Shown: one piece after another, positions 1 to 36,054 of the stretch | Layout: each line of letters starts with the position of its first letter | Position numbering within the stretch: the stretch's first letter is position 1 | Source of the DNA: a virus | IMG/VR virus record: IMGVR_UViG_3300025031_000230 | Length of the DNA stretch: 36,054 nt | Direction: 5' to 3' (one strand) | Translations under genes and position numbers: made by a program | The notes under the pieces: model-generated | What the model was told of the DNA's origin: nothing | Seen by the model: only the letters and a program-made list of their open reading frames with translations | Databases searched by the model: none

Positions 1-283
1 TTCATTTGGAAGAAAATGTTATTTGGCATAAACTTATGAATACTAATTTATTCACTAGTCATCAAGTTGATTCTTTAATTAATAAAGTTAAATCTGAACA
101 TAATAAAATTAAAGCATTAACTAAATCGCAGTTTAAAACAGCACCAAGCTAAAGTTGAAATGGAATGAAGTTTCTTCAGCTTTAGGAAAGAATAGAAATC
201 ATTGGTATAAAAACATAATGAATTATATTCAACCTACGGTAGTTAAACCTCAATCTGCTCAAGAGATTAATCCTTTTGAGTAG
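1..283 (+). pseudogene. TnpB-like gene relic: N-terminal piece joined out of frame to the C-terminal tail
   Basis: N-terminal frame (HLEENVIWHKLMNTNLFTSHQVD...) stops at TAA 150-152; C-terminal frame (LKWNEVSSALGKNRNHWYKN...INPFE) stops at TAG 281-283. Confidence 0.8.
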
Positions 284-387
284 AACCAAAGCTAGCATAA
301 GCTATCTTTGGAAGTGTAGGTTTATCAGCTTGGTTTAACAACCCCTATCAAGCGACTTGTTTTTCAACAAGGTTTCAGAGGGGCTTG
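284..387 (+). ncRNA. Candidate omega-RNA (reRNA)-like scaffold at the element right end
   Basis: Nested stems CCAAAG/CTTTGG, TAGC/GCTA, AACCAA(A)GCT/AGCTTGGTT, CCCCT/AGGGG and CTTGTT/AACAAG between the TnpB-like stop and the element end. Identity is inferred from position. Confidence 0.45.
360..387 (-). repeat. Right terminal inverted repeat (28 bp)
   Basis: TTTTTCAACAAGGTTTCAGAGGGGCTTG; reverse complement matches 34949-34976 at 27/28. Confidence 0.9.
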
Positions 388-2354: not shown

Positions 2355-3317
2355 ATGTCACATTTTACAGTTGTTGTTGTTGGTTCTGATATTGATGAGC
2401 AAATGGAACCTTATGCAGAACAAGACTTCGAAGAAAAGTATGGTGTTTTTAATAATACAGAAGATGAGAATTTAGAAGAATATCAAAATAAAGATGTTGA
2501 TATTGTTGTATTGGTCGATGGAAGTCTTCATAATAAATATGAAGAACAGTTTAAGAGGATTAATGCAAAAACATTTAGTTCAGATTACATTTATCCAGAA
2601 GGTTCTGTAATTCGACAAGGTAAATTTTCTGAACTCTATTCAACTTTTGAAGAATTTATGGAAGGTTGGCATCGAACTTCACAACGTGATGAAAAAACAG
2701 GTCTTTATGGCTATTGGCATAATCCTCAGTCTCATTTTGATTGGTATAGTATTGGTGGTCGCTGGACGGGTTATTTTAAACCCAAAGCTGGGGCAACTGG
2801 TGAGTTAGGTCGTCCAGGATTAATGACTCAATCACCAGCTAATGGTTGGGTAGATTCAATTAAGGTTGGAGATATTGATGTAGAAGGTATGCAAGAAGAG
2901 TCTGTTCGTGAAGCTAATGAAACTTACGATAAAATTGAAGCAATTCTTCAAGGACGTACTTATCCATCATGGACTGTTATTCGTGAAAAGCATAATGAAG
3001 ACATTGAGGCTGCTCGTGCCGAATATAATGATAATGAAGTTGTGAAAGATTTCAATAAGGCTCAATTCCATATTTGGGGGGATTTCGTAGAAACATATGG
3101 TAATAGTCGTGAAGAATATGTTGAACGTCAAAAGAATAGGACAATGGTGCCTTTTGCAGTTGTGAAAGACGGTCAATGGTATCAAAAGGGTGAAATGGGT
3201 TGGTGGGGTTGTTCTACTGATGAAATGACTCAAGATGAATGGAATGCTAAGTTTTGGGAAATGATTAATTCACTTTCTCCAGAAACTGAATTAACTCTAC
3301 TTGATTGTCATATCTAA
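2355..3317 (+). CDS. Conserved phage-type hypothetical protein (SHF...DWYSIGGRW...KGEMGWWG...DCHI)
   Basis: TGTTATAAT extended -10 and TAAGGA RBS upstream; Trp-rich motifs I recognise from phage hypotheticals; function unknown. Confidence 0.8.
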   Translation: MSHFTVVVVGSDIDEQMEPYAEQDFEEKYGVFNNTEDENLEEYQNKDVDIVVLVDGSLHNKYEEQFKRINAKTFSSDYIYPEGSVIRQGKFSELYSTFEEFMEGWHRTSQRDEKTGLYGYWHNPQSHFDWYSIGGRWTGYFKPKAGATGELGRPGLMTQSPANGWVDSIKVGDIDVEGMQEESVREANETYDKIEAILQGRTYPSWTVIREKHNEDIEAARAEYNDNEVVKDFNKAQFHIWGDFVETYGNSREEYVERQKNRTMVPFAVVKDGQWYQKGEMGWWGCSTDEMTQDEWNAKFWEMINSLSPETELTLLDCHI

Positions 3318-3369: not shown

Positions 3370-4649
3370 AATTTATTGTAAGTGATTTGTTTTGTGTTTT
3401 TAGTTCAAGGAATTTTTCTCGTAAACTACAAATTGTTTGGCTAAGGCTAAGATTATTTATTTTTTCTAAATTAATACTTAATTGTTGTGAATTGTAATTA
3501 GATTGTTGAGTTCCGTAATTTTCAGAAAATTGATTAAGTTTTAATTCAGAAAAATTAGCCTTATCAAACTTAATTAAGTCTTCTTTCTGTAGTTGTTTTC
3601 TATATTGTTTAATAATATCTTTTTTTGATAACTGAGAACATTTGTTATCAAAATCAAAATAGGGTGCATTATTATCTAGAGTATTTATTGAATCATATTG
3701 GCAATAAAATGTTCTAATATTATTTAAATGAGATTCAAATTTATCAAAAAAAGTATTGATAGAGCAGTTATGTCTTGTTTGACAAAAATCTTTTAATTCT
3801 AAGAGAAACAAGTTGTTATTTTTTGCTTCTTCTTTCATTGTTTTATATAAACCATCTAATGCTTCAACTTGAATGATGTGATGAATTGCTTCAAAATTAT
3901 TGTTAGCAATATTTAAAATATCTTCCTTTTGAACACTATTAATTAAATTATCTTTAAATTTTTGAATTCCATGAAAATTAAAATATTCTGTAGTAGAAAA
4001 TTTTCCTTTTAAAACTTGACCATCATTTATTGATAATACATTACTATCTTTTATTTCTTTATAATTAAGTTCTCTAAATGTTTTAATTTTATCAAAAATA
4101 TCTTTTGAATCATTTTTTAAATAAACAATCAATCCAGAATAAATGTCAGCATAAGATTCCATAAAGTTTTGTTGCATAAATCTTACTATACCATTAGGAG
4201 TTTTATTATTTGCTTTAAAAAAATCATGTATATCAATTAATTTCACATTAGGCGAGTCTGCTATTTTTGTATGAGTTAGGCAAATATCCCCATATTGTCC
4301 AATATTCCAATTACTTGCTGATTCTTGTTTCCTTAAAAAGTAATGATTTGCTTGATGACCAAATTCATGTGATACAATAGTGTCTAATGCATCTATACCA
4401 AAAATTTTCTGAGCACCTTCATAAGTTTTTTTATTTTCTAAATTTTCCAAAAATCTACTTGGTATATTTATTTTTTCTTTTTCCCGACTGTATTTCAATG
4501 ATTCGAAATTATTTTGGTCATATCCATCTTCTTTTATTTTATATATATAAGTTATTATCACTAATAAATTTCAAAACTTCATTTGTTTGAAATTTTGTTT
4601 GATTGTTAGTAAAAAATTTTTTAATTTTGTTATATGTTTTTCTTATCAT
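3368..4649 (-). pseudogene. HExxH zinc-metallopeptidase-like gene, frameshifted at a (TA)5 tract
   Basis: SHEFGH and ESYAD motifs in the 3368-4561 frame. An ATG at 4649 (ATGA overlap with the upstream stop) opens 36 codons that end just past the TA tract at 4540-4549; adding one TA joins the frames into 427 aa. Confidence 0.7.
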
Positions 4650-5062
4650 AAAATAATTATATCAACTTCAAAATCTGTTTCAATTTTTTGAAGTTCAATA
4701 TTGGTTTTGGCAATTATGATTTTATTATTTTTAACAAATGGATGATTAATAATTCTTTCATCTAAAGATGCTAGTTCATAATAAAATTTATCACCAAAAT
4801 CAAAAAGAATACTACTTTTCCATATATAAATTTTAGATTCAGTTGAATTATTAAATTTATCCCAAAATTCTTTTTCTTTGGAATCAATAAATAATGTATC
4901 TAAATAATTTTCTTCCATAAAGAAATTAAGACACTTAAGTTCTTTACCTTTAATTTTATTTCCTTTGTTTCCTTTATAATATGTAATGAAATATTCATTA
5001 TCATTTTCTATCTTAGGATATTGATTAATATATGCTTGAGCAATTTCTTTAGAAGTTTTCAT
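4646..5062 (-). CDS. Hypothetical protein, paralog 1 of a tandem pair
   Basis: Shares MKTSK..AQ.YI, YYKGN.GN, LDTL.IDSKEKEFWDK, SSILFDF, FYYEL and DIIIL with 5271-5696. Confidence 0.85.
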   Translation of the reverse strand: MKTSKEIAQAYINQYPKIENDNEYFITYYKGNKGNKIKGKELKCLNFFMEENYLDTLFIDSKEKEFWDKFNNSTESKIYIWKSSILFDFGDKFYYELASLDERIINHPFVKNNKIIIAKTNIELQKIETDFEVDIIIL

Positions 5063-5115
5063 AATTATTTCCTTATTTTTTTTAAGTAGTATAATTTGTT
5101 TACAAAATAAATCAA
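5063..5115 (-). promoter_or_regulatory. Sigma70-like promoter and RBS of paralog 1
   Basis: TTGATT-N16-TATACT (5115-5088), then AAGGAAATAATT-ATG; nearly identical to 5697-5747. Confidence 0.55.
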
Positions 5116-5141
5116 ATGTAGATGAAATAACTAATGAACAT

Positions 5142-5189
5142 AAGACTTTATAGAAAATAATTTCAAATTGTTATTTTCTATAAAGTCTT
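5142..5189. repeat. Perfect 19-bp inverted repeat with 10-nt loop
   Basis: AAGACTTTATAGAAAATAA (5142-5160) / TTATTTTCTATAAAGTCTT (5171-5189). Confidence 0.85.
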
Positions 5190-5270
5190 TAACTCCATTA
5201 AAAATGGGTGTGGTATCATAAGAAGAAACTTCTATTGAAGGTTTCTTAAAAATTTTATTCAATAAAGATT

Positions 5271-5696
5271 TCATAAAATAATTATATCAGTTTCAAAAGA
5301 TTCTTCAAAATTTTCTAAATTTTTATTAAACTTTGCTATATATGATTTTTGATTTTTTAAAATAAAACTATCAGAACCACTTAGCTCATTTCTTAGGCAA
5401 GGTAGTTCATAATAGAAGTTTTCATTAAAATCAAAAAGAATACTGCTTCCCCACATATACACGGTACAAGCTAAAGAACCATTTATTTTATCCCAAAACT
5501 CTTTTTCTTTTGAATCAATAAGTAAGGTGTCTAAATTATTTAAGTCAAGATAATGCTTCAAATATTTAGTTTTTTTAGCTTTAATTTCATTACCATTATT
5601 TCCTTTATAATATTCAAAAAGGCATTCATTTTCATTTCTTTCAACTTGTGAATATTCATCAATATATTCTTGAGCCATTTGTTTAGATGTTTTCAT
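5271..5696 (-). CDS. Hypothetical protein, paralog 2 of the tandem pair
   Basis: Start moved to ATG 5696 (MKTSKQ) by homology to paralog 1 and the shared RBS. Confidence 0.85.
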   Translation of the reverse strand: MKTSKQMAQEYIDEYSQVERNENECLFEYYKGNNGNEIKAKKTKYLKHYLDLNNLDTLLIDSKEKEFWDKINGSLACTVYMWGSSILFDFNENFYYELPCLRNELSGSDSFILKNQKSYIAKFNKNLENFEESFETDIIIL

Positions 5697-5747
5697 AATT
5701 ATTTCCTTATTTTTAAGTAGTATAAAAATGTTTACAAAATAAATCAA
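5697..5747 (-). promoter_or_regulatory. Sigma70-like promoter and RBS of paralog 2
   Basis: TTGATT-N17-TATACT (5747-5719); duplicate of 5063-5115. Confidence 0.55.
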
Positions 5748-5792
5748 ATATTGTTTTTTTAAAGTAGATTACACAAATTTAACTTACCCTAA

Positions 5793-6098
5793 GTATAGTA
5801 TTGGTGGTCGTTGGACAGGATATTTTAAACCAAAGGCTGGAGCTAGTGGTTATGTAGGAAAACCAGGATTAATGACTCAATCACCAACTAATGGTTGGGT
5901 AGATTCAATTAAGGTTGGAGATATTGATGTAGAAGGTATGCAAGCTGAATCTGTTCGTGAGAAACATAATGAAGACATTGAGGCTGCTCGTGCCGAATAT
6001 AATTCACTGCAAGTTGTGAAAGATGGTCAGTGGTATCAAAAGGGAGAAATGGGTTGGTGGGGTTGTTCTACTGATGAAATGACTCAAGATGAATGGAA
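5793..6098 (+). pseudogene. Partial duplicate of the 2355-3317 gene with two internal in-frame deletions
   Basis: Aligns to about 2744-3243 minus 75 bp and 120 bp; lacks both ends. Confidence 0.85.
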
Positions 6099-6107
6099 GA
6101 ATATACC

Positions 6108-6530
6108 ATGAGTAAAGTATATGAATTAAAACAAGACTTAGAAAACTATGCTAATTTTGTAGAACAAAGAAATACATTAGAAGATTCTTTTTATTATAAA
6201 TATTGGGGATTAAAAACTATTGATTTAAATGAATTTAAATCAATAAAATTAAAGTTGTATGTTTCTGATACAGGAAAGAAAAACTATCAAACAGATATTA
6301 GTCATATTAGTAGTGGTTCATTTGTTTTTAGTGAAAAAGCTATTAATTTTTTAAAAGAAATACTAGAAAAAAAAGGACAGTTTTCCCCTGTTGAAACAGA
6401 AAGTAAGAGAAAAAAGTTTTATGGATTTTATGCGAATAAAACCCCATACGATGGTTCTATAATTAATTTTGAAAAATCAGTTTGGAGACAGGCAGAAAAA
6501 TTTAAAGAAAAAGTTCTTCATAGTAGTTGA
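6108..6530 (+). CDS. Hypothetical protein, weakly Imm11/DUF1629 immunity-like, possibly truncated
   Basis: FVFSEKA..FLKEILE..GQF.PV...INFEKSVW resembles Imm11-type proteins from memory; ATG 6108 or 6093. Confidence 0.4.
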   Translation: MSKVYELKQDLENYANFVEQRNTLEDSFYYKYWGLKTIDLNEFKSIKLKLYVSDTGKKNYQTDISHISSGSFVFSEKAINFLKEILEKKGQFSPVETESKRKKFYGFYANKTPYDGSIINFEKSVWRQAEKFKEKVLHSS

Positions 6531-6730
6531 ATTACACAAGAAAAACATAATGATTTGTTGTGGGGCAGTTCCAAATAGTGAATGGGTTGATGTGTCAGTG
6601 AATAATCGTTTTAAAGAACGGTATTTTCATCTTCATCGTGACTGTGGAGCTAAAGTTTTTGAAATAATTCAAGAAAGTGAACTTGGTATAAATAAAGATA
6701 AATTTCAAATTAAAGAATGGAGATTAAATT

Positions 6731-7633
6731 ATGAGTTGGTTTGATAATATAAGTAACCAAAAGGTTGAAAGTATAAAATATGCAATTAATTATGAATTGG
6801 ATAATAATGAAAAAAAATTATTAGAATTATCTAAAAATCATACATATTTAGTTAAGTGGATTACTGAACCTTTTGAAAAATTTGGATATGCAAAAGAATT
6901 AATGTCTGTAAGAAAATATTACAGAATGAATTCTTTGCAAGAAAAAAACTATATGAATGTTTCAGCGATATTAGATTGGAATATTAAAAGTTTAGATATC
7001 AAAAATAGAGTTAAATATTTCTTTCTAAGCTTGTTTGTCGCAAAAGATATTAGTTTAATAAAGTCATTTTTATTTTATTTATTGTTTTTCGAGTCAATAA
7101 TTGTTATTTTTAAATCCATGGCTATAAAACTTTTAATGGCTGATGTTTTTAAATTAATTTTATTATTTACATATTCTATACCTATTATTGTAATTTCATC
7201 ATTGTTCGTTAATCTAATGTTGCCTTTAATTATGTTTTACAAAAAAGGTATATTTATAGATTTATATGGAAATAAACAAGAACAAGAAAAAACTAAAAAA
7301 TTAGCATTAGATACAATAATGAAATTAAGTGGTGTGTATGAAAAAATAAATATAAAAAAAGACGATGAAACAGACTTTTTATTAAGTGTGGAATTGTTAA
7401 GTAAAAAATATCAAAATGGAACAATTGAAAAATTAAAAAATGAAAATCCATATATAAATTTTTGTGAAGAAATATATGAAAAAAATAATTTATTACCAAA
7501 GGTTAATTATTCTTATGAAGAATTGTTGCAAAAAAATAAAGAAAAGTTAGTTCTAGAAAATAAAGAAAGTTTAGAAAAACTCTTAACAAATGAATTAAAA
7601 GAAGAAAAGGTAAAAAAACAAGTAAAAATATAA
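6731..7633 (+). CDS. Hypothetical membrane protein with K-I tail
   Basis: Hydrophobic stretches around aa 95-170; ends ESLEKLLTNELKEEKVKKQVKI. Confidence 0.8.
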   Translation: MSWFDNISNQKVESIKYAINYELDNNEKKLLELSKNHTYLVKWITEPFEKFGYAKELMSVRKYYRMNSLQEKNYMNVSAILDWNIKSLDIKNRVKYFFLSLFVAKDISLIKSFLFYLLFFESIIVIFKSMAIKLLMADVFKLILLFTYSIPIIVISSLFVNLMLPLIMFYKKGIFIDLYGNKQEQEKTKKLALDTIMKLSGVYEKINIKKDDETDFLLSVELLSKKYQNGTIEKLKNENPYINFCEEIYEKNNLLPKVNYSYEELLQKNKEKLVLENKESLEKLLTNELKEEKVKKQVKI

Positions 7634-8744: not shown

Positions 8745-9095
8745 TTACATTTTCTTTTTTCTTTGATGGATAATATTATTGTCTATAAGGTTAAATTCTT
8801 GAGCAGATTGTGGTTTAACTACCGTAGGTTGAATATAATCCATTATGTTTTTATACCAATGATTTCTATTCTTTCCTAAAGCTGAAGAAACTTCATTCCA
8901 TTTCAACTCACCTACAAACAACCTATTGCTCTGTTTGGGTTGTTTGTGATAAGGGAATTTAATTTCTTCTTGATACATCTTCTTAAAACTTACATTATTT
9001 TCAGTTTTAAATTCTTTGCCAAATATTGATTGTCTTGCTAACCAAAGGCTCGCCACAATATCAACAGGTAATTTATTCAATAATCCATATTAAAA
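8745..9095 (-). pseudogene. C-terminal fragment of the TnpB-like gene
   Basis: YGLLNKLPVDIVASLWLARQ resembles the RuvC-III region; 8797-8908 is about 98% identical to the tail of the deleted element at 153-264; no TIR nearby. Confidence 0.75.
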
Positions 9096-14426: not shown

Positions 14427-14454
14427 TAAATTAAAATAAAAGCCTATTTTAATG

Positions 14455-14640
14455 CAAGCCCATCTAAAAACTTGTTAAAAAAGTAATTAAAACCATACTA
14501 CGTCCTTGAAATTCAAGGACTTTTTCATTTCTGTACTAAAAACTTTTTTGTGGTAAAAATTGAATTTATATAACTTGTTGATTTATAACGATTTAATAGA
14601 AAACCCCACACAAAAATCAACAAGATTTCGGAGGGGCTTG
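14455..14640. mobile_element. 186-bp MITE with imperfect TIRs and 9-bp target-site duplication
   Basis: Ends CAAGCCCATCTAAAAACTTGTT / AACAAGATTTCGGAGGGGCTTG (18/22); ATTTTAATG at 14446-14454 and 14641-14649; internal GTCCTTGAA-A-TTCAAGGAC palindrome at 14502-14520. Confidence 0.85.
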
Positions 14641-14670
14641 ATTTTAATGCCAGGTCTTATATCTGTGTAA

Positions 14671-15575: not shown

Positions 15576-15616
15576 TGTTATAATTGCTTCATGTTAAATA
15601 AAATGAGGTGATAATT

Positions 15617-16636
15617 ATGAGATCTTTAGCTAGTATTCGTGTAGCAGGAGAAAATTTTCCTATTGTTGGTGCTGATTTAATTACCGCAACACGTGTTGAT
15701 GGTTGGGTTTGTGTAACCCAAAAGGGCGAATTTAATGTTGGTGATTTAGGTGTCTATTTTGAAATTGATTCTTTTCTTCCAGGAACAGATAAACGGTTTT
15801 CATTTCTTGAAAAGACATTTATAAATTGGTTGGGAAATGTGGGGGCAAGATTGCGCACAATAAAGTTACGTGGGCAAGTATCTCAAGGCTTGTTTTTACC
15901 AATGCGTTTATTTCCAGAATTAGATGGTAAGGTCGTCGGTGATGATGTAACTGAAATTTTAAATATTCAAAAATGGGAAGCCCCAGTACCTACACAGTTA
16001 GCTGGAGAGGTTACAGGGAAAATGAGATCAGTAATTCCAATTACAGATGAAGAACGAATCCAAAATCTTATTGATAAGATTAAAACACATATTGCTGGTC
16101 AAACTTTTGAAAAAACTATAAAGTTAGATGGAACATCAATGACTGTATTTTGTCATGAAGGACAACTAGGTGTTGCTGGTAGAAATTGGGAGCTTCGTGA
16201 AAGTGAAGCAAATACTCTATGGAGGGTTGCAAGGAAGAATAAACTAATTGAAGCTGTTGGATCTTTGGGTAAAAATATTGCTATTCGTGGTGAGTTGATT
16301 GGTGAAGGAATTCAAGAAAATAATGAAAAGCTAGTTGGAAATGATTTTTATTTATTCAATATTTGGGACATTGATAAACAAGAATATCTTTCTCCAGAAG
16401 ATAGAGAGATTGTTGTTGCTGAATTAGTAAATCTGGGAGCAAAAATCAATCAAGTTCCAACTGAAGGCTTTATTGTATTTGATGAAAATGTTACTGTAGA
16501 TGATATTTTATCTTTAGCCGATGGGAAATCTTTATTTTCACCAAACCGTGAAGGTATTGTGTTTAAAAGAAAAGATGGAAAATTTTCATTTAAAGCGATT
16601 TCTAATTGGTATCTACTTAAGCACGCCAACCGTTAA
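15617..16636 (+). CDS. ATP-dependent RNA ligase, DRB0094/Rnl2-like family
   Basis: KLDGTS (motif I), GELIG, FNIWD, EGIVFK, FKAIS; N-terminal LASI...GAD...YFEIDSFLP; GAGGTG RBS. Confidence 0.92.
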   Translation: MRSLASIRVAGENFPIVGADLITATRVDGWVCVTQKGEFNVGDLGVYFEIDSFLPGTDKRFSFLEKTFINWLGNVGARLRTIKLRGQVSQGLFLPMRLFPELDGKVVGDDVTEILNIQKWEAPVPTQLAGEVTGKMRSVIPITDEERIQNLIDKIKTHIAGQTFEKTIKLDGTSMTVFCHEGQLGVAGRNWELRESEANTLWRVARKNKLIEAVGSLGKNIAIRGELIGEGIQENNEKLVGNDFYLFNIWDIDKQEYLSPEDREIVVAELVNLGAKINQVPTEGFIVFDENVTVDDILSLADGKSLFSPNREGIVFKRKDGKFSFKAISNWYLLKHANR

Positions 16637-24759: not shown

Positions 24760-25953
24760 TTATTTAACAGAAAAAACTTGACGAAGATAAGCTAAATATT
24801 CTTCATTTTTACACATTGATTTTCCAGGTGAGTCACTAATTTTAGCAACTGGAGAACCATTGCATGAAGTCATCTTAATCACAATATTAAGAGCTTTAAC
24901 ACCCATGTCGTTAGTTAGATTGGTTCCAATACCAAAAAATGTTTTAACTTTACCATAAAAGGTTTGAAAAAGTTCAATTGATTTATCAATATTTAAGCCA
25001 TCAGAAAAAACAAAAATTTTTGTTTTAGGGTCAATTTTCATACTTTCATAGTGTTCAATCATTCTGTTACCCCAAATAACAGGGTCGCCACTATCGTGCC
25101 GAACACCATCAAATAGTTTACAGAAAAACAAATCAAAATCGGCACAAAATGCTTCCATACCAATCACGTCAGTAAGAGCAATACCTAAATCTCCACGGAA
25201 CTCTTGCACCCATTTGTCAAAAGCAAACTTTTGACTATCACGAAGCCGAGGACCAAGTGCTTGGCAACCTTGTAAAAATTCATGGGCCATAGTCCCAATA
25301 GGGGTTAGATTATGCCTCATAGCAAAAAGAACATTGCTAGTGCCTGTAAAATTATCAGGTAATGCATTTTTAAATGCAACAATAACTTCTTCTTGCCAAT
25401 CACGGCTGTAACGACGACGAGTTCCAAAATCAGAGAATTTAAATTCTTTATTATTAAGTTCACAAACTTTTTGAATTTTTACTTGAAGACGTTCACGACC
25501 AGTAACAAAATGTTCAGTATTTTGAGTTTGACGAAAGTAAACTTCATTAATGATAGAAAGAACTGGAACTTCAAATAAAATGGTATGAACCCATGGGCCA
25601 CGAATTACAACATCAATTTCATTTTCATTGAGAGCGATAATATTAATGTATTTGCGTTGAAGTTTGAAGATGCTCAAAAAAGCAATATAGTCATCAGTGG
25701 TATAACGAAGACTATCCATGAAATTTAATTCTTCTTCACTAAACTTGAGTGTGCAAAGGTGGTCAATTTGACGATTGATTTCATCAATAAACTGAACCAT
25801 ATTAATATTTGTGTCACGACATTTAAAGTGAAATTCAACATCACTTGCATTTGGAAACTGGTGCATGACAGCTTGTTGCATAGTAAATTTGTATAAGTCA
25901 GTATCCAAAAGAGATTCAATAATTGGAACGAATTTTTGTTGTTTAAATTTCAT
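24760..25953 (-). CDS. pncB: Nicotinate phosphoribosyltransferase
   Basis: SLLDTDLYKFTM, DFGTRRR, GTMAHE, RHDSGDP, FSDGL, FGIGTNLTND, AKISDSPGK. Confidence 0.97.
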   Translation of the reverse strand: MKFKQQKFVPIIESLLDTDLYKFTMQQAVMHQFPNASDVEFHFKCRDTNINMVQFIDEINRQIDHLCTLKFSEEELNFMDSLRYTTDDYIAFLSIFKLQRKYINIIALNENEIDVVIRGPWVHTILFEVPVLSIINEVYFRQTQNTEHFVTGRERLQVKIQKVCELNNKEFKFSDFGTRRRYSRDWQEEVIVAFKNALPDNFTGTSNVLFAMRHNLTPIGTMAHEFLQGCQALGPRLRDSQKFAFDKWVQEFRGDLGIALTDVIGMEAFCADFDLFFCKLFDGVRHDSGDPVIWGNRMIEHYESMKIDPKTKIFVFSDGLNIDKSIELFQTFYGKVKTFFGIGTNLTNDMGVKALNIVIKMTSCNGSPVAKISDSPGKSMCKNEEYLAYLRQVFSVK

Positions 25954-25981
25954 TTTTTTCCTATTTAATTACGATGAATGA

Positions 25982-26021
25982 ATTATAATACACTTAGTTG
26001 AGTTTGTCAACTAAGTGTATT
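25982..26021 (-). promoter_or_regulatory. Consensus sigma70 promoter of pncB overlapped by a 35-bp palindromic operator
   Basis: TTGACA (26010-26005)-N17-TATAAT (25987-25982); arms AATACACTTAGTTGA / TCAACTAAGTGTATT. Confidence 0.88.
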
Positions 26022-26042
26022 GTTTATTTTTAATAAGTTGGA

Positions 26043-26249
26043 TTATTTAAACTTAAGAGACTCTGCTCTCATTTTATCAATACTAGCAGAGATTTTATCC
26101 AATTGTTCTTCATTTGCTCGTGCATCGTCAAGAAGCAATTTACGAATTTGAGCCATTCTTTCCAATGTTCCTTGTCCTGGGTGATTGTCGCTTTTGCCAT
26201 CAATGTATTCAAACATTAAATCAAGTTGGTATTCTGACATTCCTAACAT
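26043..26249 (-). CDS. Small hypothetical protein
   Basis: GGAG RBS supplied by the end of the upstream gene. Confidence 0.65.
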   Translation of the reverse strand: MLGMSEYQLDLMFEYIDGKSDNHPGQGTLERMAQIRKLLLDDARANEEQLDKISASIDKMRAESLKFK

Positions 26250-26250
26250 G

Positions 26251-26514
26251 TTATTTTACTCCAAAGTGTTTAATAATGCTATTGCCTGATTCAACACAGG
26301 CAATATCCCAAGTATGGCCAAGCCGATCTCTTGCCTCTTTATCTTCATACGGACACGGGACTGCTCGTGCAATTCTAGCACATTCTTGAATAATCAAATC
26401 GGCTAATTTGCCAATATTGCGGTCACCCCAAAGTGTATTCTCGCTGATACCAAGCCCAGTGGGATACATTACCATACCAGCTTGTTTAGCAAGTGCTTCA
26501 ATTCGTTCGTTCAT
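26251..26514 (-). CDS. Small phage-type hypothetical protein (MNERI..LA.QA...A.LI..ECA...HFGV)
   Basis: Motif I recognise from aquatic phage hypotheticals; GGAG RBS. Confidence 0.75.
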   Translation of the reverse strand: MNERIEALAKQAGMVMYPTGLGISENTLWGDRNIGKLADLIIQECARIARAVPCPYEDKEARDRLGHTWDIACVESGNSIIKHFGVK

Positions 26515-26528
26515 TATTTTACTCCAAA
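26251..26528. repeat. 15-bp direct repeat flanking the 87-aa ORF
   Basis: TTATTTTACTCCAAA at 26251-26265 and 26514-26528. Confidence 0.8.
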
Positions 26529-26580
26529 AGTTTTGTATATTATGTTTTAAAAGAATTATAACAGGTTAATGTATTAAAAA

Positions 26581-27267
26581 TTAAGGTTTTGGTGAAGATT
26601 TTAAAATATTGCTATCAAAATTAAATACAATATCATTAACTAACGAATAAAGTTTAGCCGGGCGATAAGCTCCTTCTTTAATTTGTTCGCCAGTTTCAAA
26701 AAGCACACCAGTTTCATCAATTTTCTTTCTGAATGTACTTTTATCAAGAGGTTCACCAAGAATAATTTCATAAACTTGTTGTAGTTTTGGAAGTGTAAAT
26801 GGGTGTGGTAAAAAGTGCATTGGAAGTGTTGAGTAATTAACTTTGTCAGTTAATCTCTTAACTGCTAAGTCAATAATATGATTATGATCAAATGCAAGAG
26901 AAGTATTTTTAATTTCACTAATTGGCTTCCAAACAGCATTAGAGACAACACTTTGCTTATCAACTAAAGCAATATAAGCAATAGAGATAGTTGGACCACG
27001 AGGGTCATGACCACTTCTAGTAAATAATTGTTCAACATAATTAACTTTAGCACCAGTCTTTTCCGAAAGGACACGAGCAGTAGCATTTTCAAGACTAGTA
27101 TCTTCTTGGCTAACTAACCCACCAGGAAGAGAATATTTCCCATTAAAAACTCCGTGTGTTCGTTTAACAAGAAGAACATGGAGTTGATTGTCAATAATGG
27201 AAAAAATAACAGGATCGACACTAACTGGAAAAATGAATTTTTGAATTTCTGGTTTAAATTTAGGCAT
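26581..27267 (-). CDS. nrtR: NrtR-family Nudix/wHTH transcriptional regulator
   Basis: VSVD.VIF, degenerate Nudix box SLPGG...ARVLSEKTG, RDP-like HDPRG, C-terminal FTL..LQ.VYE.ILG..LDK..FRKK...RPAKLY; GGAG RBS before ATG 27267. Confidence 0.9.
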   Translation of the reverse strand: MPKFKPEIQKFIFPVSVDPVIFSIIDNQLHVLLVKRTHGVFNGKYSLPGGLVSQEDTSLENATARVLSEKTGAKVNYVEQLFTRSGHDPRGPTISIAYIALVDKQSVVSNAVWKPISEIKNTSLAFDHNHIIDLAVKRLTDKVNYSTLPMHFLPHPFTLPKLQQVYEIILGEPLDKSTFRKKIDETGVLFETGEQIKEGAYRPAKLYSLVNDIVFNFDSNILKSSPKP

Positions 27268-27279
27268 GAATAACTCCAA

Positions 27280-32100: not shown

Positions 32101-33352
32101 ATTGACGAAAAATAACAAACTATTAGAGGAAGCCAAGAGCTTGGTTTATGGCAGTGAAAGTCATGAAATATCCTATGTTGGGGTTAAGCCTTGGTATTCA
32201 AGAGCCGTATCTAAATTTAAATTTGGAATGGCAACTGGAATGGCAACTGGTTTAATAGCAGGTTTGGCAGGCTTTGGGGCATTTAGTTCGGCAGATTTAG
32301 CTGAATTAAAAGATACTACTCTTTTAAGTAATCTTAGTGTTGGGAAACTAATAGATATTAATGCTGAAAAATTATTAGTAAGTTCTACAAATAATAAATC
32401 TGTTGTTGAAAATAATGGATTTGAGAGTGCATTAAATATTTTAAAAAAAGAACATGTAAATATTAATTTTACAGATATTGAAAATCAAAGAGATGTTTCA
32501 AAAGCTTTTTTAGGTAAAAATAATTTTATTGCTCTTGCTGCTGAAATGGAAGGTTTTCGTGGAGATTTACATAAGGATCCAGCAACTGGACTAAATATTG
32601 GTTTTGGTTACAATATATCGAAAAGAATTGGAAGTTCAACAATTGTTGTGGTGAATGACTTATCTGCTATTGGCTTATCTCATGAAAAAATTCAAAAAAT
32701 TCTTGATATTGCAAAATTACCTCAAAATAAATTAAATTTTGGAATAAAAGAGTTTAATAAAGGATTAGCTTCAGAAGATAAGCAATTAATTACGATTAAA
32801 CAGGGTGTTGCTTTACTAAAAAGAACACAAGCTGAATATAAAGAACAAGCTAGGTTATCGTTTGAAGGGGTGTTTGATAAAATGGGTAAACACCAACAAG
32901 AAGTTTTAACTTATGCTGCTTATAAAGCTGGTTATGATGCTTTATCTCAATATAAAAAAGCTATTCGTATAGCATCTAGTGTTTATGCTAAAAATAAAAA
33001 TCCAGGTATGGCAGAATTAAAAACAATAGCTAAAGAATTAACTTTCTACTATAGGAAAGATGGTAATGAAATGGTTCTAGATGAAAGAGCCAAATTGATT
33101 GCACAAACATTTGTTAATCAAGATTATTTAGGTGTTCAAATTGGTAAGAAAGATGGATTAACAAATTCATTGAAAAATATAAATAAACAGAAAATAGATT
33201 TTTTACATTTAAAAACAAATTTAACTTCTGAATCAAGTAATGCTACAAAGGTTGCAATTGAAATAAAGCAAAAACCTGATATTGGTGATTTTTTAAATAA
33301 ATTAAGAGATACAAATAAAGAGAGTTCAAAGCATAAAATCAAACAAGGTTAA
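32090..33352 (+). CDS. Membrane-anchored lysozyme-like (GH24-like) protein
   Basis: Gly-rich hydrophobic segment at about aa 45-67; EMEGFRGDLHKDPATGLNIGFGYN resembles E-x8-D-x5-T with Asn for Thr. Confidence 0.55.
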   Translation: MVAKLTKNNKLLEEAKSLVYGSESHEISYVGVKPWYSRAVSKFKFGMATGMATGLIAGLAGFGAFSSADLAELKDTTLLSNLSVGKLIDINAEKLLVSSTNNKSVVENNGFESALNILKKEHVNINFTDIENQRDVSKAFLGKNNFIALAAEMEGFRGDLHKDPATGLNIGFGYNISKRIGSSTIVVVNDLSAIGLSHEKIQKILDIAKLPQNKLNFGIKEFNKGLASEDKQLITIKQGVALLKRTQAEYKEQARLSFEGVFDKMGKHQQEVLTYAAYKAGYDALSQYKKAIRIASSVYAKNKNPGMAELKTIAKELTFYYRKDGNEMVLDERAKLIAQTFVNQDYLGVQIGKKDGLTNSLKNINKQKIDFLHLKTNLTSESSNATKVAIEIKQKPDIGDFLNKLRDTNKESSKHKIKQG

Positions 33353-34184
33353 GAAAATTAGTTGGAAAGTTTTCTTTTGACATATAGTCAGCAAATTTAT
33401 TTTTTTGTCTAGGAATCCAGGCAATTTGATAAAATTCAAATAGTTCTAAATTGTTAGAAATTTCTTCCAAAATGTTTTTAAATTCATTTTTTACATTTTG
33501 TGGATTAATTTTATACTTTTTAAGTAACATAATAGACGGATCTGAATCCGTGAATATCTCAAGAGATGATACATTCATATCTTTTGCAAGATAAATAGCC
33601 ATACTAATGGCTTTAAGTTCTGCAATATTATTATCATTGGTAGAGTCTTTTTTTCTAAAGCTAGCAACAACATTGTGGCCAGAGACACCATATCCAGCTA
33701 AATAAGTTTTAGAACTTACTGATGCATCAGTAAAAAAGGAAACATCAGGCTTAATAAATTTATCTGATTTCAAAATGTTTGCACCAATTTTCATATATTG
33801 TGTAATGATATAAGGTGGGTTTAACTTGATAGAAAGAGATTGGTCATGTTCAATTTTTTGAATAGGACTCAATAGAGAAACAAGTTTTTTAATTGTTTGT
33901 TTTTCGTTATAAAATTTTTCAATCATAAATTGAATAAATTTTTCAATATTCAATGTCGCATATTTAAACTTGTTTTCAAAACTTTTACCATAACAAATGT
34001 CTAATATTTTTGTTATTTGCTTAGGGAAACAAGAAAATTTTAAAATAAGAAAATTAGAATTTAAAGCATATTTAATTGCTTCACAAATAGAATCATCAAT
34101 ATGATTGGATGTTATTTGGAAAATAACATTATTATTTTGAATAATGACAACTTCATTGTTGCCATTATATTTTAAATTAATCAA
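33339..34184 (-). CDS. Protein with C-terminal RNase HI-like domain
   Basis: FFTDAS, NNIAELKAI, IFTDS, WIPRQKNKFAD (D-E-D-D). Confidence 0.85.
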   Translation of the reverse strand: MINLKYNGNNEVVIIQNNNVIFQITSNHIDDSICEAIKYALNSNFLILKFSCFPKQITKILDICYGKSFENKFKYATLNIEKFIQFMIEKFYNEKQTIKKLVSLLSPIQKIEHDQSLSIKLNPPYIITQYMKIGANILKSDKFIKPDVSFFTDASVSSKTYLAGYGVSGHNVVASFRKKDSTNDNNIAELKAISMAIYLAKDMNVSSLEIFTDSDPSIMLLKKYKINPQNVKNEFKNILEEISNNLELFEFYQIAWIPRQKNKFADYMSKENFPTNFLNLV

Positions 34185-34825: not shown

Positions 34826-34948
34826 TTGGTTTGTTTAAGTAAGTTTAACATGGTGTTATTATAGCATGGAAAGCATTTATTTTTTGATTTTAAATATAAA
34901 AAAAGAATGAATAAATTAAATATTTAATAGAAAAAGCCCCAATTTTGA

Positions 34949-36054
34949 CAAGCCCCTCTGAAATCTTGTTGAAAAATTTGACAAATTTTCATTAATTGTT
35001 AGTCTAAATCATATGATTAATACGATAGAAACTAGATTGAAATTAGATTTAACACAAGAATTAGACATTAATTCTTGTGTTTCCTTATGGTCTGAATTTT
35101 ATCGTAAAACTTGGGTTATGTTTAATAATCTTCATTTGGAAGAAAATGTTATTTGGCATAATCTTATGAATACTAATTTATTCACTAGTCATCAAGTTGA
35201 TTCTATCATTAATAAAGTTAAATCTGAACATGCTAAATTTAAAGCATTAACTAAATCTCAGTTAAACACACACAAAAATAAACTAGACAATATTAATAAG
35301 TTTATTAACAAAGAAGATAAGTTAATTGCTAAATTAAATAAAGACATCATTAAACTTAAGTCTGCTAAAAATTTAGATTATCCTAAAATATCAAAACTAT
35401 TTAACTCCATCAAGAAAAAACAATTTGTTATTAATCAAAAATCTATCAAACTTCGTAGATTAACCAAGTCTATTTTAATTTTACAAAAAAGGATAGATAA
35501 TAATACTTTTAAACTTTGTTTTGGTAGCTCTACTTTACTTAAACAAAGACCTGGTAACCATACTGATAAATTTAGATTAAATTCTAACCAAAAAGTTTAT
35601 GATAACTTGTCTGATTGGAAAAAAGATTGGGATTTAGCTAGAAATAATATTTTATATTCTGTTGGCAATAAAAATAAACCTCAAGGTAATGCTGAAATTC
35701 AATATTACCATGATTCTAAAACATTAAGACTTAGAGTCACGGATAAAACTTATCTCAATAGATTAGAAATAATTTCAAAACAACTTAATATTTCAGTTAA
35801 TGATTTAGACGATAATAAAATTATTAAAAATGGAATTTATCGTATGCAAGCCAGATTTATAGAAATAAATAATGTTGAATTTTGTGCTAAAAATCAAGCT
35901 AAATTAATTCATTCTATCAATAATAAACAACCAATTGCAGCTAAGATAATGAAGAAATTAACTCCTAACGGTCAAGATGTTGGGTTTTACTTACAATTAT
36001 CTTTTTCTGAAGTTGTTATGCAACAAGTTAAATTAAATCTTAAACCAACCACAA
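34949..36054 (+). mobile_element. TnpB-like TIR element, left part (runs off the window)
   Basis: Left TIR CAAGCCCCTCTGAAATCTTGTTGAAAAA at 34949-34976, TTGACA at 34978 and TAGTCT at 35000, then the ORF. Confidence 0.8.
35013..36054 (+). CDS. Large TnpB-related (IS200/IS605/IS607 accessory-type) protein, N-terminal 347 aa, partial
   Basis: Open frame with no stop to the window end: MINTIETRL, long coiled coil, LCFGS..L, W..DW..ARNN....VG.K....GN, LRLR. RuvC-I is expected just past the window end and is not visible. Confidence 0.75.
   Translation, partial: MINTIETRLKLDLTQELDINSCVSLWSEFYRKTWVMFNNLHLEENVIWHNLMNTNLFTSHQVDSIINKVKSEHAKFKALTKSQLNTHKNKLDNINKFINKEDKLIAKLNKDIIKLKSAKNLDYPKISKLFNSIKKKQFVINQKSIKLRRLTKSILILQKRIDNNTFKLCFGSSTLLKQRPGNHTDKFRLNSNQKVYDNLSDWKKDWDLARNNILYSVGNKNKPQGNAEIQYYHDSKTLRLRVTDKTYLNRLEIISKQLNISVNDLDDNKIIKNGIYRMQARFIEINNVEFCAKNQAKLIHSINNKQPIAAKIMKKLTPNGQDVGFYLQLSFSEVVMQQVKLNLKPTT

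Follow-up and report, generated by a model that had tools for sequence, protein, structure and literature searches.

The stretch of DNA analysed here (36,054 nucleotides of the IMG/VR virus record IMGVR_UViG_3300025031_000230, hereafter the window) ends within a TnpB-like gene that is preceded by a terminal inverted repeat (TIR), and this locus raises the question of which enzyme moves such a gene. The usual view is that TnpB earns its keep in elements whose excision leaves no scar, those of the IS200/IS605 and IS607 families, and links between TnpB and cut-and-paste DDE transposons are rare in prokaryotes. The IS200/IS605 and IS607 families have neither TIRs nor target site duplications (PMC13565253). 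A first-pass annotation, made from the letters of the window, had proposed a non-autonomous TnpB element mobilised in trans by a DDE transposase, and had seen in it a prokaryotic parallel to the capture of Fanzor by DDE transposons. The novelty of this was overstated, since Altae-Tran et al. (2023, PMC10691335) had already described six branches of TnpB that are associated with DDE transposases and have inverted terminal repeats (DDE-1 to DDE-6), as well as solo TnpBs that are moved in trans.

The GC content of the window is 26.6%. At 24760-27279, 15608-16636 and 33339-34184 it carries a NAPRTase gene beside an NrtR-like NUDIX/winged-helix regulator, an RNA ligase gene and an RNase H-like gene, all amid many ORFs without a Pfam family. 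A giant-virus origin was considered and rejected: the Mimivirus-type early promoter motif is not enriched, and the flanks of related loci include bacterial genes, ftsZ among them. Some gene segments are duplicated locally at 74-97% identity (2744-3244 and 5793-6098; 4646-5095 and 5271-5729), and these duplications are unrelated to the element. The features that belong to the element family are the following.

1-285, plus strand: internally deleted copy of the gene, consisting of a 5' piece and the last codons; the RuvC domain is missing
286-387 (102 nt), plus strand: 3' UTR and right end of the deleted copy, a structured omegaRNA-like tract; right TIR at 360-387
8787-9092, minus strand: third piece, a 3' gene fragment without UTR or TIR, 94% identical to L024:6482-6789
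14446-14649, no strand assigned: MITE with its duplication; the MITE proper is 14455-14640, 186 bp
34932-36054, plus strand: left flank and left end of a full-length copy at the 3' end of the window, from an insertion sequence of ~1.97 kb in all
34932-34939, plus strand: left flank with an A-run and a short GC stem half; the same layout, with nine bases next to it, stands before the other scored elements
34940-34948, plus strand: CAATTTTGA, the nine bases abutting the left TIR, the would-be left copy of the target duplication
34949-34976, plus strand: left TIR of 28 nt, tip CAAGCC, inner GTTGA, matched by the inverted 360-387
35013-36053, plus strand: TnpB-like gene, first 347 codons of 598 aa, open to the window end (36054)

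The window thus contains four pieces of one element family, namely the left end of a full-length copy, the deleted copy, the 3' fragment and the MITE. The annotation had noted the same 28-bp end before the gene and, inverted, in the deleted copy, and this is indeed the case: 27 of the 28 positions match, and shuffled sequence yields no comparable pair. In the deleted copy, positions 1-140 are 94% identical to 35131-35270 in the 5' part of the gene, and ~153-285 correspond to the gene's last codons with the stop at 283-285. The MITE is, as had been claimed, flanked by an exact 9-bp duplication (ATTTTAATG at 14446-14454 and 14641-14649). Its ends are imperfect copies of family-type TIRs and its interior is unrelated to the long element, the sequence common to both being limited to ~24 nt per end. 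Sharing the TIRs and nothing else with the full element, the MITE indicates that the TIRs suffice for movement. The MITE interior also has its own terminator-like hairpin and T-run (14502-14520), which may stand in for the terminator split by the insertion of the MITE.

The RuvC motifs of the full-length gene fall past the window end. A copy 99.9% identical to that of the window is present at another site on a 93-kb metagenome contig (L024), where the whole 598-aa ORF lies at 5001-6797 and the contig stops within the right TIR. The flanks of the two copies differ right up to the first TIR base. Promoter and terminator scans of the left end of the element gave nothing informative.

The encoded protein is a remote TnpB/Cas12-fold RuvC protein without a zinc finger. 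Its closest database protein, P0001 (598 aa), is the product of the L024 copy and is listed at 100% identity over 347 aa, with one visible difference at residue 2. An AlphaFold (AF2) model was built from 28 relatives (pLDDT 76) and compared with known structures by Foldseek; the top matches were nearly all Cas12 (Cas12f, k, m, a, c and l), CasX, TnpB or RuvC, with E-values of 2.5e-8 to 1e-3 and TM-scores that are low (0.2-0.36) because of domain placement. The model thus has the fold of the TnpB/Cas12 superfamily, with WED/REC and a split RuvC domain. The NCBIfam model guided_TnpB matched with E 1e-6 to 2e-7 at 28-30 bits, under its cut-off of 100. Pfam TNB (Cas12f1-like) gave E 0.06-0.18 and the curated Pfam cut-off (OrfB_IS605 or TNB) was not reached, and a profile search of PDB sequences returned no match to the protein. 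The catalytic residues D351 (GIDLN), E422 (AIENLDF) and D505 (VDIAAS) of the RuvC domain stand in the motif context usual for it, are invariant in 28 sequences and are conserved in the Cupriavidus copy. The fold matches, the guided_TnpB match and this D-E-D triad bear out the description of the gene as TnpB-like with a RuvC domain. Between E422 and D505 we found no conserved cysteine of the C4 zinc finger (TNB), a short SSIGG..KYG loop being present instead, which indicates that the zinc finger has been lost. A similar loss has been described for some large TnpB branches (PMC10691335).

An exhaustive profile search placed 1410 clusters in the family at E <=1e-3 and 81 at E <=1e-30. The longer homologues (650-780 aa) have no additional Pfam domain, so a fusion to a DDE domain is not evident. 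No relative of the protein was detected in IMG/VR and a phage collection; plasmids hold relatives at only 25-30% identity, annotated as TnpB-related, and in a 400-genome sample of the class of the starting genome the family profile matched the starting genome alone. Distant homologues (E 1e-19) with the same full architecture are found in a Cupriavidus genome directly after an IS607-type serine recombinase gene. Such a position of the nearest outgroup indicates that the lineage descends from accessory TnpBs of IS607-type elements. In this outgroup (L018:614-2889 and L015:1354-3657) an H replaces the third catalytic D, and in one of the two loci a single 767-aa frame fuses the N-terminus of the recombinase to the TnpB-like part.

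Related loci were collected from seven Burkholderiales species in GTDB (28-36% identity) and from AT-rich metagenome contigs (49-67% identity), and the limits of the elements were set by a script search for inverted repeats flanking each gene, followed by hand checks. Fourteen elements were scored. The full-length ones measure 1.93-2.08 kb with a single gene each, the exceptions in size being the MITE, one derivative with a deletion and one copy made longer by the insertion of an IS. TIRs of 27-28 nt are conserved in all 14, with the consensus C[AT]AGCC ... GTTG[AC]TAA, and a 9-bp duplication flanks 12 of them (nine exact, two with one mismatch and one at 7/9), as listed here.

Exact 9-bp duplication: MITE, L025, L027, L029, L041, L006, L050, L008, L009 (L009 with a one-base junction ambiguity)
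9-bp duplication with one mismatch: L049, L003
Duplication matching at 7/9: L005
No duplication: L028, L038

The two elements in the last line are probably recombinants between copies. L038:4937-6023 is a 1087-bp deletion derivative with both TIRs, unrelated flanks and no duplication, and L028 is similar. The empty sites in three related Cupriavidus species are uninterrupted and hold a single copy of the 9 bp, which establishes a genuine target duplication and extends to the family the TIR and 9-bp signature that had been proposed from the window. Nearly all reconstructed targets fold into strong hairpins, preceded by an A-run and followed by a T-run, and the duplicated 9 bp are centred on the loop; the element therefore inserts into terminator-like hairpins. 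A motif AAAAGCC beside the element was considered as 'TAM-like' and is better read as the A-run and stem half of the terminator target, the bases beside the duplication varying between elements. In Cupriavidus necator A5-1, the second element copy (L003) carries in its 3'-UTR hairpin loop a 1.16-kb IS630-family element (L003:7733-8896) with a DDE_3 and HTH transposase, its own TIRs and a CTAG/TA target, and it differs from copy 1 by a 225-bp internal inversion.

The right end of the element forms a conserved structure. In an alignment of 11 right ends of the AT-rich clade, from the last codons to the terminus, RNAalifold predicts a closing helix that pairs the last codons with the outer TIR, plus three hairpins, the last of which has the inner TIR as its 3' arm. 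Compensatory changes occur in 11 of 31 pairs against 2.3 expected; none of 500 shuffles reaches 11, and slid controls give 1-3. In all 11 sequences a possible pseudoknot is available between the second hairpin's loop and the terminal 8-9 nt of the element, and two lineages re-pair differently. The CCCC..GGGG stems, in which the annotation had seen a likeness to the end hairpins of Y1 elements, belong to this covarying RNA-like structure and not to an end of the Y1 type. No Rfam family matches it. The structure resembles the guide-RNA scaffold of TnpB and Fanzor, and we regard it as a putative, omegaRNA-like RNA; the Fanzor1 scaffold takes in TIR and target site duplication (PMC10711439).

The sequence of the ends gives an indication of the enzyme that uses them. 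A core, GCCGTTCAGTTAAG, is common to the family TIRs, to the inverted repeats of Escherichia coli IS4, taken from the annotated K-12 record, and to those of an IS4-like element of Cupriavidus (identity 14/17, at a one-base offset). In shuffle tests the TIRs of Burkholderiales members scored z of 3.2-6.0 against IS4 and IS4-like repeats, with IS2 and IS630-like controls at <=1, whereas the TIR of the window clade gave z of ~1 against IS4 directly, so that its resemblance is transitive, through the Burkholderiales members. Such IS4-type ends point to a putative DDE transposase of the IS4 family. In that family duplications span 8-13 bp, about one helical turn, the tips are CA or CT, and the IS4 and IS4Sa subgroups have a striking specificity in both target arms (PMC2266710). 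The 9-bp duplication of the TnpB-like family is likewise about one helical turn.

The Cupriavidus IS4-like element (L102:1361-2769, Cupriavidus necator A5-1) encodes a 442-aa transposase 40% identical to InsG and is flanked by a 12-bp duplication. Its insertion site, a terminator hairpin loop with an A-run on one side and a T-run on the other, is of the type used by the TnpB-like family. Immediately after the left TIR of this element comes an inverted copy of that TIR, the two forming a terminal hairpin, and part of the right-end structure described above may therefore be a feature of IS4-type ends. The TnpB-like family itself has no single-ORF DDE transposase with a YREK motif and no detectable homology to InsG (hhalign probability 0.6%). 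The element is thus a user of IS4-type ends and not a member of IS4.

We searched for the transposase in several ways. None is encoded in the window, as had been stated, nor in any of 39 related loci, which were compared by all-against-all ORF searches and of which ~25 have enough flank; there is neither a recurrent neighbouring gene nor a second gene inside the TIRs. An IS4-like gene is absent from the window and from ~100 loci. No partner with matching ends was found in Cupriavidus necator A5-1 and Pelomonas, in both of which the TIR core is confined to the ends of the element itself. IS4-family elements resident in these genomes make 10-12-bp duplications and carry TAATGCC or CAAT tips, and for these reasons they are not the partner. 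Across 401 Burkholderiales genomes, a degenerate TIR pattern with 3 mismatches matched at the level of its reversed control, and the scan gave only two exact orphan TIRs of the family type (L097:3038-3060 and L098:2994-3016). Both are single TIRs with no adjoining TnpB-like gene, on contigs that end, and that of L098 abuts a terminator half-site; they may represent other cargo types or remnants. A scan of IMG/VR with a 15-mer of the TIR gave 48 single matches, about the number estimated by chance, of which 2-8 are TIR-like, without a mate and without a gene.

Taken together, these results make it probable that the element carries TnpB, is non-autonomous and depends for its movement on an IS4-family DDE transposase acting in trans, a partner that did not turn up in the loci searched. 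Since no transposase is encoded, we regard both the element and the MITE with the same ends as non-autonomous. The element inserts through a 9-bp staggered cut in the loop of a terminator-like hairpin (A-run, GC stem, loop, stem, T-run). Both this chemistry and this choice of target are those of IS4-family DDE transposases, which work by cut-and-paste and duplicate about one helical turn of target. The transposase that mobilises element and MITE in trans would be of the IS4 family and would generate duplications of 9 bp. In the TnpB-like protein the ancestral function of its relatives has probably been retained: with the structured RNA that extends from the last codons to the right TIR, it may serve as an RNA-guided nuclease and so promote the persistence of the element. 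The trans mobilisation proposed by the first-pass annotation thus gains support from the IS4-type ends, while the transposase that it called for was found neither in the window and the 39 loci nor, with matching ends, in the two genomes searched. Against mobilisation in trans also stand the differing tips and duplications of the resident IS4-family elements, the lack of a two-gene form in the 39 loci and the transitive link between the TIR of the window clade and IS4; moreover, an autonomous element would likewise be compatible with the intact D-E-D triad and with the occurrence, in several genera, of single copies that have clean duplications.

A rather unlikely sub-case of mobilisation in trans holds that rare two-gene masters, with an IS4-family transposase and a TnpB-like gene within the same TIRs, supply the transposase, the solo forms being their deletion derivatives. 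It finds a precedent in the published solo TnpBs, the ends of which are nearly identical to those of transposase-bearing forms (PMC10691335), and family-type TIRs do occur without a TnpB-like gene at the two orphan sites. However, those orphans are single TIRs on contigs that end, and the count of second genes inside the TIRs stands at 0/39, with ~25 loci offering enough flank to see one.

We favoured at first an autonomous element, in which the TnpB-derived RuvC protein is the transposase, or its essential catalytic part, and binds the TIRs and makes the 9-bp staggered cut. Each of the 39 loci has one gene per element, no other element with the same ends was seen in the two genomes searched, and one genome holds two 99.7% identical copies with separate duplications. 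Moreover, the TIRs have been conserved while the protein diverged to ~30% identity, the catalytic triad is invariant, and a MITE with the same ends shares a replicon with full copies. We lowered this estimate because of the IS4-type ends and the shared type of target: the IS4 DDE transposase is unrelated to the protein, so convergence on both ends and target would be needed. The nearest outgroup being an accessory TnpB beside an IS607 serine recombinase, and the retention of the covarying omegaRNA-like tract, also argue against autonomy, to which we now give roughly one chance in eight. Nor is the joining of DNA strands known for any protein of the TnpB lineage. That the protein is the transposase of a new IS family, possibly one still using the right-end RNA, appears slightly less probable again; if true, a lineage of RNA-guided nucleases would have been converted to TIR-directed cut-and-paste, its staggered cuts of 9 bp falling at terminator hairpins. 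Finally, an ordinary solo tnpB of the IS200/IS605 or IS607 type, which a Y1 or serine recombinase would move by way of subterminal hairpins, the TIRs and duplications being coincidental, would account for the CCCC/GGGG and other stems at the right end and for the distant homologues in IS607 elements, but it is highly improbable, being already contradicted by true 27-28-nt inverted repeats at both ends, by 9-bp duplications in 12/14 elements with a single copy at empty sites, and by a MITE that shares the TIRs only, with no TnpA in the element.

The window family can be compared with known systems. The DDE-TnpB branches are alike in having the TnpB gene within inverted repeats, with the 3' end of the gene near the end of the transposon, and in having solo forms presumed to be moved in trans. 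The DDE families linked to TnpB are, according to a review of 2026, IS630, ISL2 and IS1031 (PMC13565253), not IS4; the window family also differs by a co-encoded transposase in 0/39 loci (a limited sample), by the 9-bp duplication and by its terminator-hairpin targets. The texts that we consulted on DDE-linked TnpBs describe no carrier with IS4-type ends that makes a 9-bp duplication, targets terminators and lacks a transposase gene of its own.

With the IS4 and IS4Sa subgroups (De Palmenaer et al. 2008, PMC2266710) the family has in common the TIR core, CA/CT tips, a duplication of about one helical turn, a strong preference in both target arms (A-run and T-run) and, as in L102, terminator hairpins. 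It differs from IS4 in having no DDE/YREK transposase gene, its interior being a TnpB-like gene and a structured RNA, and from the IS4-like elements that we examined in its tips (C[AT]AGCC against TAATGCC or CAAT) and in the length of its duplication (9 bp against 10-13 bp). Insertion into terminator loops would be a safe-haven strategy, and knowledge of it is useful for genome annotation. The TnpB of the IS607 family, as in L018, where a serine recombinase gene is followed by a 554-aa homologue, resembles the window protein in its full-length architecture, missing zinc finger and C-terminal extension; it differs by its serine recombinase TnpA and by the H instead of D at the third catalytic position in the copies seen.

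The family is clean and well defined by sequence; it unites IS4-type ends, a fixed 9-bp duplication, terminator-hairpin targeting, a TnpB without a zinc finger and a putative guide-like RNA that contains the TIR. Its layout is the one described for Fanzor1 of eukaryotes and their viruses, the non-autonomous elements of which have TIRs and target site duplications, encode a TnpB homologue only (Bao and Jurka 2013, PMC3627910; PMC10711439) and possess a guide-RNA scaffold that appears to take in the TIR. The window family differs in being prokaryotic, in its IS4-type ends and in lacking the zinc finger. The family therefore offers a bacterial system in which to ask in what way a guide RNA accommodates both a TIR and a duplicated target, what service TnpB renders to a cut-and-paste element and whether a solo TnpB element in fact depends on a foreign transposase.
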